In this document: piece after piece, positions 2,998 through 64,000 of the stretch
Numbering within the stretch: position 1 is the stretch's first letter
Layout of the letters: every line of letters begins with the position of its first letter
IMG/VR virus record: IMGVR_UViG_2531839010_000002
Span: 1 to 64,000 of that record
Reading direction: 5' to 3' (one strand)
From: a virus
Lineage: Duplodnaviria > Caudoviricetes
Length of the DNA stretch: 64,000 nucleotides
The notes under the pieces: model-generated
Seen by the model: only the letters and a program-made list of their open reading frames with translations
What the model was told of the DNA's origin: nothing
Database searches by the model: none
Program-made: the position numbers and the translations under genes

Positions 2998-3540
2998 TTG
3001 GAGGAAATCATGACGGACGAAGTAAGAGAATATGCCGAAAGGAAGATATGGGAGAGCGGAATACGAATGGTTCCGGGGCATTATCCAGAATTTGAAAACA
3101 AAGAGCAGGTGGATGACTGGCTGTATATCTCAGAATACATGTTCATAAAATCATTCGGTCAGGAAATGCCAGAGATTATCAGTGTTGATATCCAAGGATA
3201 TAAAGACCTGCTGTGGAAACTTAAAAAGAATGAGGATAATGTTCCACTGGAAATCCTCCGGACAAAACACAGAATGGCATACAACAACCTTCGGCAGGAA
3301 CTAAAGGACATGACGGAAGCAATCATTCATGAAGTAGTGCATAGAAACCTGTATATAAAATGGTCAGACGCAGAGCATAGCCTGCAGAAAATCAACCAGG
3401 CTGTAGCGGATTCGGGGATGTGCGAATTAATCAGCAAAGCCTTGTATCAGGAAAAGTGCTATGGCAGCGTCATAGCAGGCATTATGAAATTAAGAAAACT
3501 TGTTTTAGAAGCCGCAGAAGAGGAGGACAAAGGTGCCTAG
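2968..3540 (+). CDS. Hypothetical phage protein
   Basis: 190-aa ORF in operon orientation. Confidence 0.6.
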   Translation: MVTVTMKSGYLEEIMTDEVREYAERKIWESGIRMVPGHYPEFENKEQVDDWLYISEYMFIKSFGQEMPEIISVDIQGYKDLLWKLKKNEDNVPLEILRTKHRMAYNNLRQELKDMTEAIIHEVVHRNLYIKWSDAEHSLQKINQAVADSGMCELISKALYQEKCYGSVIAGIMKLRKLVLEAAEEEDKGA

Positions 3541-18328: not shown

Positions 18329-18649
18329 ATGTTTGAGGACTGGGACCTGATAGTCTCCAGTTTTTTGTCGCAGTACGGGTTAAGAATCAGAACGAAGGAA
18401 TTTGAAACAGTCTCCTGGGACGAATTCAAGGCACTGATTGCCGGCCTGTCCCCGGAGACTGCATTAGGCCGTGTGGTAGCCATCCGGTCCGAAACAGATA
18501 AGGATATCATCAAACATTATACAAAGGACCAGCGCCAGATATATGACGATTGGCGCAACCGGGAAATGAAAGAAATGGATGAGAAAACCTTCGAGAAGGA
18601 AATGGCCGGCCTGGAGAAGATGTTTGCGGCTATGTGCGGAGGTGGTTAA
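18329..18649 (+). CDS. Tail assembly chaperone second ORF (Gp15-like), probably reached by frameshift
   Basis: Frame open upstream of the ATG (SSDPYYD-MFEDWDLIVSSF...); no SD before ATG 18329. Confidence 0.7.
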   Translation: MFEDWDLIVSSFLSQYGLRIRTKEFETVSWDEFKALIAGLSPETALGRVVAIRSETDKDIIKHYTKDQRQIYDDWRNREMKEMDEKTFEKEMAGLEKMFAAMCGGG

Positions 18650-18794
18650 GATTGAGAAAGTAAGATGTGTAAGATGTGGACAGACCCTTCTCCTGGCGGA
18701 ATACGTTAAGGGGGAAATTAAATGTCCCAGATGTAAAACCATAAACAGGTTGGATATAAAAATGACAGAGCCTAGAGCCGCACCAAAGGAGTAG
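18642..18794 (+). CDS. Mu Com-like zinc-finger micro-protein (~47-50 aa)
   Basis: KVRCVRCGQTLLLAEYVKGEIKCPRCKTIN; start either GTG 18642 or ATT 18651 (8 nt after GGAGG). Confidence 0.8.
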   Translation: MVKIEKVRCVRCGQTLLLAEYVKGEIKCPRCKTINRLDIKMTEPRAAPKE

Positions 18795-18836
18795 CGAGCC
18801 AGAGCCTGCTTTTGAATTAAAAGGCAGGTGATATGT

Positions 18837-21800
18837 ATGGCAGCTGACAGCGTAGGCCAGATTGGCCTTGACCTTGTGGTCAACCAGAATCAATTTAAAC
18901 AGCAGATGGCCGGAATACAGGGACTGGCTAAAAAGGCGGGAGCTGCTCTGGCGGCGGCGTTTGCAGTAAAGAAAATCATAGATTTCGGCGCACAGTGTAT
19001 TGAATTGGGTTCCGACCTGGCGGAAGTACAGAACGTGGTAGATGTCACATTCCCGCGGATGTCCAAACAGGTGGATGACTTTGCTAAGAACGCCATAACC
19101 TCCTTCGGCCTGTCCGAGACCATGGCTAAGAAATTCACGGGTACATTCGGTGCGATGGCCAAGGCATTCGGCTTTGGTGAGCAGCAGGCCTATGAGATGG
19201 CCACGGCTTTAACTGGACTGTCTGGTGATGTGGCATCATTCTATAACATCAGCCAAGATGAAGCCTATACAAAGCTGAAATCCGTGTTCACGGGTGAGAC
19301 GGAGACCCTTAAGGACCTGGGCATCGTCATGACCCAGAGCGCCCTGGACAGTTATGCCCTGGCGAACGGCTATGGCAAGGTAACGGCTAAGATGTCTGAG
19401 GCTGAGAAGGTGGCCCTGCGGTATAAGTTCGTGCAGGACCAGCTGTCCCTGGCATCCGGTGACTTCATCCGGACGGCGGATGGCTGGGCAAACCAGGTAC
19501 GCGTCCTGAAGCTGCAGTTTGACAGCCTCAAGGCCACAATCGGTCAGGGGCTCATCAATGTGCTGACCCCGGTCATCCAGGTAATCAACCGCATCATCAG
19601 TAAGCTGATGAGCCTGGCCAATGCCTTCAAGGCATTTACGGAGATGGTGACCGGGAAGAAGGGTGGAGGAGGCACATCCGCAGCCACGGCCGGTATGGAT
19701 GCGATGGCCCAGTCTGCGGATAAGGCCGGGGCGGCCGCCGGAGGAGCCGGCGGGGCTGCTAAGAAGGCCGCTAAAGACATGAAAAGTGTCAGCACAGGCA
19801 TTGATGAGCTTAATATCATTAATCCTGATACCGATTCCGGAGGCGGTGGTTCCGGAGGTGGAGCTGATGGAGGGTATTCTGCGGACGAGTTCGATATGGG
19901 TGAGCTTGATACATCGGCCGTGGATGAGATGGACAGCAAGTATGCAGGACTGATTGAAAAGGCCAGAGAGCTTGCGGGACTGTTCAGGGAAGGATTCTGG
20001 GATGGTTTTGGCGATACGTCCGTCTTTGATAGTATACAGTCATCCATAGACAGCATCAAAGGCAGCCTGAGGGATATATTCACATCGCCGGAGGTGTTGG
20101 CTTCGGCTAATTCATTTGCTGACCAGGTTGCCTATAGCCTGGGACAGGTTGCAGGCTCCATGGCGAGCATCGGGACATCCATAGCGGATAACCTGCTGGG
20201 TGGGATTAGCCTGTTCCTGCAGCAGAATAAGGACCGTGTCATTGAGTATATTGTGTCCATGTTTGATATTGGCTCACGCATCGCGGAGATAAGCGGGAAT
20301 TTTTCCAAAGCACTTGCAACTGTATTTTCATCTCTACGGAGTAACAGCGCCAAGCAGATTACAGCAGATATTATTGGGATATTTTCCGAGGCCTTCATGG
20401 GTGCCACGGAATTGGCAGGGACATTTGCGGCAGATGTACTGGACACCATTACAGCTCCGTTCATCGAAAATGCGGATTACATCAAGACAACCCTGGAGGA
20501 TACATTCAGTGCTGTAGAACCTGTCTTTTCTACGGTTAAAGATTTGGTTACAGAAACTTTTGAAAAGATTGGTACAACATATGATGAGCATGTAGCCCCC
20601 ATGCTGGCAACTTTCAAACAAGGGTTCACGGAAATCGGCACCCTGCTGCTTGATGTCTACAACACATATTTCCTGCCGGTATTACAGAACCTGTCATCTC
20701 GATTCGTTGAATTTAAGGACCAGTACCTGAGCCCGCTGATTGATAAGTTCCTGGAGTTTGGTGGAAAAGTAGCTGATGCGGTCACCAAATTGTGGACCGG
20801 AGCTCTACAGCCATTCATTGAATGGTTTATGTCCAATGTGGCACCGGTCATAGCTTCATGCCTACAAGCCGCCATTGATACATTCTTTGGTTTCTGGGAA
20901 TCCGTTTCGGGTATCATAGAAGGATTGCTCACAGCACTTGGCGGTGTAATTGACTTCGTTGTTGGTGTGTTCACTGGTGACTGGAGTCTTGCGTGGGAAG
21001 GAATCAAGGAAATATTCACCGGTATTTGGGAGACATTGAAAGAGCTCGTTTCTGGTGCAGTAACATTCATTCAAAATGTTGTTAACCTGGCGTGGACTGC
21101 TATATCTGGAGCAACCAGTACCATCTGGAACGGAATCAAGACACTTTTGAATACTCTTTGGAACTGGCTTAAGTCTCTGGCCAATACATTATTCAATGCT
21201 ATCAAGACATCCATCAGCACGGCCTGGGAGAATGTCAAGAGTAAGACATCAGAAATATGGGAATCCATTAAGGAATTCGTATCAAATCTGTGGGATACAA
21301 TCAAGACAGCAGTGGATGAGAAGTTCACGGCCATGAAAGATGCTATTGCCGGGGTCTGGGATACGGTGAGAACAAAGACAAAAGAAACCTGGGACGGTAT
21401 CTGGGCAGATATAAAGGGTATCATTAACATGATTATCAATGGTGTAGAGAGCATGGCCAACAGGGTTATTGATGCGATTAATGCCATGATAGACGCCGTA
21501 AATGAGGTGGCGGATAAGGTACCAGGCATCGGCGCTGATTTTATCCCGAATATACCAAACATCCATCTTCCGCGTCTGGCCCAAGGCGGTTTTGTCCGCG
21601 CCAACACCCCGCAGCTGGCCATGATAGGTGATAACCGACACTATGGTGAGATTGTGGCTCCTGAGGATAAGATGCAGGCCATGGTAGACCGGGCGGTAGC
21701 TTTAGCTTCCCAAACAAGCAGTAATGGCATGAGTGAGCAGTATCTGTCCATCATGGTAGACCTGCTACAGCGTATCATTGACCTGATAGAGCAGATGGAC

Positions 21801-61815: not shown

Positions 61816-63735
61816 ATGAAAATAATTAACTTAGGTATTCTGGCTCACGTTGACGCAGGAAAGACAACATTAACGGAGAGTTTATTGTATACCAGTGGTG
61901 CAATTGCAGAACTAGGGAGCGTAGATAAAGGCACAACAAGGACAGATACAATGAATTTGGAGCGTCAAAGGGGAATCACTATCCAGACAGCAGTGACATC
62001 TTTTCAGTGGGAGGATGTAAAAGTCAACATTATAGATACGCCAGGCCATATGGATTTTTTGGCGGAAGTATACCGTTCTTTATCCGTATTAGACGGAGCA
62101 GTATTATTAGTTTCTGCAAAGGATGGCATACAGGCACAGACCCGTATACTGTTTCATGCATTACAGACAATGAAGATTCCGACAATTTTTTTCATCAATA
62201 AAATTGACCAAGAGGGGATTGATTTGCCAATGGTATATCGGGAAATGAAAGCAAAGCTTTCTTCGGAAATTATAGTGAAGCAAAAGGTTGGGCAGCATCC
62301 CCATATAAATGTAACGGACAATGACGATATGGAACAGTGGGATGCGGTAATTATGGGAAACGATGAACTATTAGAGAAATATATGTCAGGGAAACCGTTT
62401 AAAATGTCAGAACTGGAACAGGAAGAAAACAGGAGATTCCAAAACGGAACGTTATTTCCCGTTTATCACGGAAGCGCTAAAAACAATCTGGGGATTCGGC
62501 AGCTTATAGAAGTGATTGCCAGTAAATTTTATTCATCAACGCCTGAAGGTCAATCTGAACTATGCGGGCAGGTTTTTAAGATTGAATATTCAGAGAAAAG
62601 GCGGCGTTTTGTTTATGTGCGTATATATAGCGGAACATTGCATTTGAGGGATGTCATTAGAATATCTGAAAAAGAGAAAATAAAAATCACAGAGATGTGT
62701 GTTCCGACAAACGGTGAATTATATCCATCCGATACAGCCTGCTCTGGTGATATTGTAATTTTACCAAATGATGTTTTGCAGCTAAACAGTATTTTGGGGA
62801 ACGAAATGCTGTTGCCGCAGAGAAAATTTATTGAAAATCCTCTCCCTATGCTCCAAACAACGATTGCAGTAAAGAAATCTGAACAGCGGGAAATATTGCT
62901 TGGGGCACTTACAGAAATTTCAGATGGCGACCCTCTTTTAAAATATTATGTGGATACTACAACGCATGAGATTATACTTTCTTTTTTGGGGAATGTGCAG
63001 ATGGAAGTCATTTGTGCCATCCTTGAGGAAAAATATCATGTGGAGGCAGAAATAAAAGAGCCTACTGTTATATATATGGAAAGACCGCTTAGAAAAGCAG
63101 AATATACCATCCACATAGAAGTCCCGCCAAATCCTTTCTGGGCTTCTGTCGGGTTGTCCATAGAGCCGCTCCCTATTGGAAGCGGAGTGCAGTATGAAAG
63201 CAGAGTTTCACTTGGATATTTAAACCAATCGTTCCAAAATGCGGTTATGGAGGGGGTTCTCTATGGCTGCGAGCAGGGGCTGTATGGATGGAAAGTGACA
63301 GACTGTAAAATCTGTTTTGAATATGGATTGTATTATAGTCCTGTAAGTACCCCCGCAGACTTTCGGCTGCTTTCCCCTATCGTATTGGAGCAGGCTTTAA
63401 AAAAAGCAGGGACAGAACTATTAGAGCCATATCTCCACTTTGAAATTTATGCACCGCAGGAATATCTCTCACGGGCGTATCATGATGCCCCAAGGTATTG
63501 TGCAGATATTGTAAGTACTCAGATAAAGAATGACGAGGTCATTCTGAAAGGAGAAATCCCTGCCAGATGTATTCAAGAATACAGGAACGATTTAACTTAT
63601 TTCACAAATGGGCAGGGAGTCTGCTTGACGGAGTTAAAAGGATACCAGCCAGCTATTGGTAAATTTATTTGCCAACCCCGCCGCCCGAATAGCCGTATAG
63701 ATAAGGTTCGGCATATGTTCCACAAGTTAGCTTAA
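61816..63735 (+). CDS. tet(O): Tetracycline ribosomal protection protein Tet(O)
   Basis: 639 aa; [20 protein letters not shown]; N- and C-termini match the Tet(O) sequence as recalled. Confidence 0.95.
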
Positions 63736-63786
63736 CAGCTTGCAAAAGTCGTATAAAATGAGATTTGAAAGGATTAGAGACTAATT

Positions 63787-63960
63787 ATGATGAAATGCGA
63801 ATGGATATTGTGTCCTGTTTGTGGGAGCAAAACCCGTAATAAAATTAGGAAGGACACTGTTTTGAAGAATTATCCCCTTTATTGTCCAAAATGCAGACAG
63901 GAAAGATTGATTAAAGTTGACAACTTGAAGATAACTGTCATCAAAGAGCCAGACGCTTAA
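63787..63960 (+). CDS. Cysteine-rich KTR peptide (cpp2-like, 57 aa)
   Basis: MMKCEWILCPVCGSKTRNKIRKDTVLKNYPLYCPKCRQERLIKVDNLKITVIKEPDA. Confidence 0.88.
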   Translation: MMKCEWILCPVCGSKTRNKIRKDTVLKNYPLYCPKCRQERLIKVDNLKITVIKEPDA

Positions 63961-64000
63961 GACGCAGAGCCGATGAAATTGTGGAACAATTCACGAATCA

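Follow-up and report, generated by a model that had tools for sequence, protein, structure and literature searches.

A KTR zinc-ribbon gene, a row of four pentamers and a terminator: a probable protein-controlled stop signal of conjugative elements and phages

Genes for KTR proteins, among them orf6 of Tn916, are annotated everywhere beside tet(M), tet(O) and other cargo of conjugative elements, yet they have no known function; our literature search, with most subscription journals outside its reach, found no paper on KTR function, the role of orf6 or GAGCC arrays. One such gene lies near the end of the DNA analysed here, positions 1 to 64,000 of the viral record IMGVR_UViG_2531839010_000002 (the window). 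A sequence-only reading of this stretch had drawn attention to GAGCC repeats at the end of the gene that run into a hairpin, in a layout seen also at a Com-like zinc-ribbon gene elsewhere in the window. The locus therefore raises the question of what the repeats, the hairpin and the protein have to do with one another. Sequence comparison shows the unit of gene, repeats and terminator to recur both in conjugative elements and in phages, and suggests that its stop signal is probably controlled by a protein. More specifically, we propose that the KTR gene and the approximately 65 nt at and after its end make up one regulatory unit of zinc-ribbon protein, four pentamers and intrinsic terminator, in which the KTR protein would bind the repeats in the nascent RNA and control the terminator, and to this proposal we give an even chance of being right.

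The KTR gene (63787-63960, plus strand) encodes 57 amino acids and follows, after a spacer of 51 nt, a tet(O)-type ribosomal-protection gene (61816-63735, plus strand), the cargo 5' of the KTR unit, whose 639-residue product has EF-G/EF-Tu domains. Just 5' of the KTR gene, a consensus scan scored a promoter-like site, TTAACA-16-TAAAAT, at 10/12 (63732-63759, plus strand; 1733-1760 of locus L001), a consensus match alone that carries no sign of function. Over the 3' end of tet(O) and the next 400 nt, identity is 99.3% with tet(O) of Campylobacter pTet and 98% with plasmids from Enterococcus and Salmonella, and the entire tet(O)-KTR-terminator stretch is found at 98-100% identity in 186 plasmids (Campylobacter pTet, Enterococcus, Streptococcus and Salmonella among them). 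A near-identical tet(O)-KTR module is also present in the best 80 genome loci, from many phyla. Since these copies are too alike for comparison, diverged KTR genes were sampled instead, from viral contigs and from 400 genomes of one class, 41 of which were KTR-positive.

The translated ORF matches the Pfam family PF14205 (Cys_rich_KTR) over profile positions 2-54 of 54 with 109 bits (E 9.9e-32; gathering cut-off 25.5 bits), and its relatives fill the orf6 slot of Tn916. It carries two Cys pairs, CPVCGSKTR and CPKC, with KTR after the first pair; in an alignment of KTR proteins (A1) the residues C9, C12, C33 and C36 are invariant, as are K15, T16 and R17. The family comprises about 2,000 clusters at 50% identity, the profile search giving 2160 clusters at E <= 1e-3. 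At the top of that search stood a protein of 4564 residues (P0136) in which 43 separate stretches match KTR-profile positions 14-32; it may be a repeat protein or an artefact. An AF2 model built from 69 sequences is a five-strand zinc beta-ribbon (pLDDT 85), an earlier model from 20 sequences (pLDDT 59) having been too poor for use. Foldseek comparison of the model with the PDB gave nothing better than E 0.5, the nearest folds (E >= 0.5) being LysW, small ribosomal zinc-ribbon proteins and RNA polymerase I ribbons, and matches in the ESM Atlas were limited to the KTR family itself. The fold is thus a generic zinc beta-ribbon and speaks neither for nor against RNA binding.

What sets the gene apart is its end, where four pentamers stand in a row on the plus strand. 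Unit 1, GAGCC (63946-63950), forms codons Glu54-Pro55, and unit 2, GACGC (63952-63956), forms codons Asp56-Ala57. The stop codon TAA (63958-63960) lies between units 2 and 3; unit 3, GACGC (63961-63965), is non-coding here and in most relatives forms codons of an xTQSR tail (alignment A6). Unit 4, GAGCC (63967-63971), is the base of the 5' arm of the terminator, and the last unit opens the stem in every cassette seen. Everything that the sequence-only reading had stated about these letters, namely GAGCC at 63946 and 63967 with GACGC repeated between them (63952 and 63961), is correct. The order GAGCC-GACGC-GACGC-GAGCC has a spacing of 6/9/6 in the window and of 6/8/6 in most conjugative elements, whose type reads GAGCC-A-GACGC-NNN-GACGC-A-GAGCC. 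Phage arrays read GAGCC-NN-GAGCC-NNN-GAGCC-NN-GAGCC, with a spacing of 7/8/7, or 6/7/6 in other copies. The two types are bridged by the array of locus L162, GAGCC-AA-GACGC-ATT-GACGC-AA-GAGCC, which has the inner GACGC units with phage-type spacing. In all cases the stem begins with the five bases of unit 4, and GGCTC closes the 3' arm before a T-run.

The hairpin itself (63966-64000, plus strand) continues beyond the window, whose edge cuts the 3' arm. The record runs on to 73764 bases, the next bases being TCGGCTCTTTTTGTTT, and these supply what had been predicted, a completing arm and a U-tract past position 64000: the outer 3' arm TCATCGGCTCT (63998-64008) pairs with the outer 5' arm AGAGCCGATGA (63966-63976), the inner helix is formed by 63979-63985 with 63990-63996, and TTTTTGTTT follows, the T-run extending to about 64016. 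That the second GAGCC runs into a hairpin arm also held up, 63967-63971 lying inside the 5' arm. The stem of 11 outer and 7 inner base pairs is G+C-rich and is directly followed by the T-run, as expected of an intrinsic terminator, and the RNA folds with -29.2 kcal/mol (z -4.25; 0/200 shuffles as stable). A simple terminator scanner did not list this hairpin, which is explained by its loop limit of 8 nt and by the two-tier stem. A search of the region with Rfam gave chance-level matches alone, and an integron attC-like site was rejected because the arms, as read from the sequences, do not fit RYYYAAC/GTTRRRY. The hairpin does not mask the start signals of the next gene: a T-run lies 3' of it and the next gene begins approximately 440 nt further on.

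Across relatives, the hairpin is kept by compensatory change. In alignment A6, which holds the sequences of 26 distinct relatives, the outer stem is nearly invariant, with G-U variants, and T or C in the 3' arm covaries with the second base of the stop codon (TAA or TGA) in three lineages. The inner helix is wholly different among lineages and yet always paired, both sides having changed in 6-12 of the 26 sequences per pair; in all, both-sided changes affect 5 of the 15 hairpin pairs. G-U pairs outnumber A-C mismatches, which points to folded RNA of the sense strand. Sequence conservation at the stem base and over about 25 nt before it extends across lineages in which the inner stem and the synonymous sites have fully diverged. 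Conservation of the 5' arm could come in part from a double constraint, coding and pairing.

What is conserved in the pentamer row is the nucleic acid and not the peptide that is read from it. In 29 KTR representatives with a mean nucleotide divergence of 30%, synonymous sites are scrambled (four codons for Pro29, 9/8/6/6, and six for Leu26) while the final codons are fixed: AAA in 21/21, GAG in 29/29, CCA in 26/29 and GAC in 26/27. By contrast with the GAC at the tail, Asp18 in the same genes is GAT in 23/26, and Glu elsewhere in KTR genes is encoded by GAA 79 times and by GAG 18 times (81% GAA). The peptide beyond the invariant EPDA differs widely among 173 family members: xTQSR in 79, an immediate stop in 30, xDAEP... 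in 15, EPI... in 3, and other tails or read-through in 46. One DNA is therefore read in at least five C-terminal ways (EPDA-stop, EPDAxTQSR, EPDAxDAEPMNL, EPDAEPIT... and read-through). The inner units form a tandem 8-nt repeat (CAGACGCA twice, in L171 and other loci), and changes in its copy number, together with 1-nt changes, shift the frame of the KTR tail, which accounts for the many C-termini in databases; L171 has one CAGACGCA unit fewer and its ORF continues through the hairpin. Intact arrays also occur where they are non-coding (L188, L162, L208 and L211/L212). The array of L162 lies about 270 nt 3' of its KTR gene, and those of L208 and L211/L212 lie past the stop codon.

Two rearranged loci may be described here in their own right. 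In L188 (G198:C1; array 2252759-2252783) the KTR core (...VIK) is parted from unit 1 by a gene, approximately 600 nt long, that has been inserted precisely at this junction, so that the KTR tail is replaced and the four-unit array and terminator stand intact and non-coding behind the inserted gene. In L202 (G067:C57), compared with L001 2318-2345, array unit 4 is directly followed by a stretch that in the window's element does not come until 330 nt later (GAGCC|TTTGCGGTTTTTCTTTTGTCG); this looks like a deletion between two CAGAGCC sites by which the KTR terminator was lost.

The simplest account of the locus would be that tet(O) and KTR are followed by a plain intrinsic terminator, the GAGCC units arising from Glu-Pro codons (GAG-CCN) and from a handy GAGCC/GGCTC stem base, and that the resemblance to the Com-like gene is coincidental. 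The hairpin with its T-run is indeed of the textbook kind, unit 1 does consist of Glu-Pro codons, and GAGCC is not enriched over the window as a whole, with 121 found against 140 expected. This account is already strained by the data: synonymous sites are scrambled through the gene but frozen in its last five codons, arrays stay intact where they encode nothing, arrays of four units with fixed spacing stand in unrelated phage contexts, and array and KTR gene go together both in an unbiased scan and across genomes, as described below. The element is more than a plain terminator, and we consider the simplest account quite unlikely.

Alternatively, the protein might be irrelevant and the hairpin governed by translation, a ribosome finishing the KTR ORF masking the 5' arm and read-through being tied to the status of the ribosome under tetracycline. 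In most conjugative-element copies the KTR stop does lie inside the 5' arm, where TAA/TGA pairs and covaries with the 3' arm, and the stops of phage cassettes overlap unit 1. Ribosome-dependent attenuation is, moreover, already established upstream of tet(M) in Tn916 (PMC7288454). Against this stand the tet(O) copy and several others, in which the stop precedes the stem, and L188, L162 and L208, in which the array is far from any stop; four regular pentamers and the conservation of the zinc ribbon would also be left unexplained. Control by translation alone is, in our judgement, very improbable.

Enrichment of GAGCC at KTR gene ends had been named as a check. At least two GAGCC within -30 to +55 of the stop are found at 35 of 66 distinct KTR gene ends and in 4 of 1680 background windows of KTR loci; the enrichment is thus borne out, with several clades lacking the repeats. 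The conjugative-element array occurs in 20 of 401 genomes, of which 19 are KTR-positive (Fisher P 3e-20), and in the twentieth the array lies 50 nt from the contig end; the reversed pattern, used as a control, occurs in 0/401. The exact outer-arm motif was found at KTR ends only (5 genomes). A dispersed repeat was considered and rejected, because exact outer-arm copies stand solely at KTR ends and six one-mismatch matches elsewhere, without hairpin or KTR, are attributable to chance. In an unbiased scan for GAGCC arrays in viral contigs, which used no protein reference, a zinc-ribbon micro-ORF had its stop no more than 60 nt from the array at 10 of 80 loci, compared with 1.0% of random positions (P 9e-9). 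Eight of these micro-ORFs were run through Pfam; four scored above the PF14205 cut-off and two more below it. In phages the array-linked ORFs stand before scaffold/capsid, major-tail, tape-measure-like or terminase blocks. The array is therefore specific to KTR genes. It is absent near the gene in 4 of 8 KTR clusters (60% core identity), so that whatever binding specificity there is does not extend to the whole family.

Full cassettes, with hairpin and T-run, make up 11 of 98 array matches; nine of them abut a zinc-ribbon ORF, and the other two are the second copy in L345 and the cassette of L304. L345 has two complete GAGCC x4 terminator cassettes (236-255 and 444-463), 200 nt apart, with one zinc-ribbon gene on their 5' side and a 476-residue ORF on their 3' side; the pair hints that one protein can serve several cassettes. 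L304 has a full GAGCC x4 cassette on its minus strand (array at 3152), behind a tRNA-gene-like stretch, and a KTR-like ORF, in which the first Cys pair is seemingly C-x3-H (ITCDKMHRKL...YCKGCKED), lies about 250 nt upstream.

Small RNAs derived from transcript 3' ends usually have a conserved single-stranded segment just ahead of a terminator hairpin, as is the case here. The pentamers could accordingly be an RNA element that owes nothing to KTR, either the seed of such a small RNA or a place at which a host factor or an RNase would set the stability of the mRNA. The cassette of L304 and the second copy in L345 do look like orphans. However, the element is almost never without a nearby KTR gene, even L304 having its KTR-like ORF, and a host-factor site need not travel with one small protein family. 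Inspection by eye of the leader directly 3' of the terminator gave no segment complementary to the pentamers, and hence neither an antiterminator partner nor a partner for a seed there. A KTR-independent role seems to us quite improbable.

The pentamers could also be bound as double-stranded DNA, by KTR or another protein acting as a transcription factor or roadblock, with an ordinary terminator abutting. Direct repeats are typical of operators, two cassettes in one phage (L345) are what operators show, and the NCBI name of the possibly related Com family is 'DNA-binding transcriptional regulator'. Yet the stem base and the last unit always coincide exactly, the array invariably occupies the sense strand on the 5' side of the hairpin, periods of 6-8 bp put successive sites on different faces of B-DNA, and the excess of G-U pairs over A-C mismatches indicates folded sense-strand RNA. 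A period of 6-8 nt would suit the binding of single-stranded RNA and be awkward for one face of double-stranded DNA; together with the constant strand and the precise coincidence of unit 4 with the stem base, it makes RNA a likelier target than duplex DNA. We consider a DNA operator unlikely, and none of the four alternatives explains all the evidence from sequence conservation, array, hairpin and specificity as well as a KTR protein acting on nascent RNA does.

The sequence-only reading had gone further and suggested that the KTR and Com families may form one class of regulators. Its starting point, a zinc-ribbon micro-gene followed by GAGCC repeats and a hairpin at two elements of one window, is confirmed: the Com-like gene (18642-18791, plus strand; PF10122 at 23.5-27.4 bits), which with its repeats and hairpin occupies 18642-18839 before a tape-measure gene, has GAGCC at 18768, 18775, 18796 and 18802, that is, GAGCC-TA-GAGCC, 16 nt and GAGCC-A-GAGCC, leading into the hairpin. 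The layout is common to both families, and sometimes the niche is as well, for L300 has, directly 5' of an 808-residue gene with a tape-measure-like start (no Pfam match), a KTR-type gene that carries a terminator-like hairpin and two GAGCC units; this is the niche of the window's Com-like gene. On the other hand, GAGCC repeats within the Com-like family are confined to one clade, the close relatives of the window's gene, and the KTR protein has no match to PF10122 at E <= 0.01, so that the single class is only partly upheld. Profile similarity between KTR and Com-like proteins is weak and falls short of establishing homology: hhalign gave a probability of 60% (E 8.7e-5) from shallow alignments and of 19% (E 1.2e-3) from 69 sequences, and both groups have a weak match to phrog_5602. 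The com-mom region of Mu has zero GAGCC. Distant Com-like genes before tape-measure genes (L244-L292) keep an RBS-covering hairpin, GCCTACTTTG...CAAGGTAGGTG, with one GAGCC or none; the stretch 5' of that hairpin has scattered AGC-containing motifs, GAGCC repeats being absent.

How, then, might a KTR protein control the terminator next to its own gene? We suppose that the protein would bind the pentamers of the nascent transcript, in a manner akin to HutP and TRAP on short repeats or to Com of Mu on RNA. Once on the fourth pentamer, it would block formation of the stem base, and RNA polymerase would read through. As the KTR gene lies upstream of its own target, read-through would occur only after the protein had accumulated, so that the unit would work as a threshold or delay switch. 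Of these steps the sign of the effect is the least secure, and KTR could instead promote termination. In the window's element, the genes 3' of KTR are two sigma-70-region-4 genes, and the unit would gate transcription from tet(O) and KTR into these regulators, the presumed counterparts of orf7 and orf8, which turn on excision in the model for Tn916.

The leader between the KTR terminator and the first sigma-like gene (record bases 64009-64450; L001 2010-2450) measures about 440 nt, a distance that uses the annotated start in a 98%-identical plasmid copy. A 255-residue ORF is called in this leader, and its true start is probably about 250 nt later, as in the annotation of plasmid pE509-3. Two further terminator-like hairpins with T-runs lie there, at L001 2092-2121 and 2303-2332, the second of which includes CACAGAGCC. 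With two more such hairpins before the sigma-like gene, passing the KTR terminator alone may not suffice.

The diverged loci place this unit in a constant order: cargo (tet(M), tet(O), an ABC transporter, a histidine kinase or others), KTR, hairpin and regulators. The regulators 3' of the hairpin are either a convergent helix-turn-helix gene (DBD_HTH) with a sigma-70-region-4 gene, or sigma-like genes directly; L124 has an orf9-like helix-turn-helix gene and an orf7-like sigma gene. In pCF10 (NC_006827) the order is tet(M), KTR and a helix-turn-helix regulator, and in Tn916 orf6 lies between tet(M) and orf9 (PMC7288454); from this gene order, KTR is the homologue of orf6. In the published model, transcription past tet(M) yields antisense orf9 RNA, orf7 is de-repressed and excision follows (Su 1992, Celli and Trieu-Cuot 1998, in PMC7288454). 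The KTR hairpin sits exactly on this read-through path. Some Tn916-like elements lack orf6 entirely (PMC7288454), and it is thus not essential for transfer.

A broader view is tentative, and we hold it with somewhat less than even confidence: KTR proteins (PF14205, including Orf6 of Tn916) may be previously unrecognised zinc-ribbon RNA-binding antiterminators, whose site would be the GAGCC/GACGC array of four pentamers fused to a terminator, and which would time late-gene blocks in gut phages and set the leakage of tet(M) and tet(O) transcription into excision regulators. In phages, the unit would, if this is true, be a new and compact device for late-gene timing. If KTR controls the terminator between a resistance gene and the excision regulators, it would belong to the circuit that links the spread of the element with exposure to antibiotics. 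Since the sequence evidence defines a candidate RNA site of 25-35 nt and a protein of 57 residues, the idea is directly testable.

Comparison with known systems helps to place the unit. Like ordinary intrinsic terminators, the KTR hairpin has a G+C-rich stem, a T-run and compensatory changes; unlike them, it is conserved in sequence at the stem base and over the approximately 25 nt upstream, across diverged lineages. The Com-mom system of Mu is similar in that a zinc-ribbon protein of about 60 residues is encoded immediately 5' of its own RNA target, a hairpin, but the hairpin that Com opens covers a ribosome-binding site, and that of KTR is a terminator followed by its T-run. Short repeats of fixed period over the 5' half of a terminator are the anatomy by which proteins of the HutP, TRAP and BglG type decide termination. 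The KTR array shares with the sites of HutP (UAG repeats), TRAP (G/UAG repeats) and BglG/SacY (RAT) this arrangement of short motifs overlapping the 5' half of the terminator. It differs in comprising four pentamers only and in having the gene of its protein directly upstream in cis; the folds of those proteins are unrelated to the KTR zinc beta-ribbon, and for KTR no ligand is known. The closest parallel in gene content is the Tn916 module, which likewise consists of a ribosomal-protection gene, KTR/orf6, a terminator and sigma-70-region-4 regulators. The window's element differs from it in carrying tet(O) and in having no convergent orf9-like gene right after KTR. The published model of tetracycline-induced transfer assigns no role to orf6 and its terminator, and the antiterminator reading would, if true, add a missing component to this 30-year-old model.
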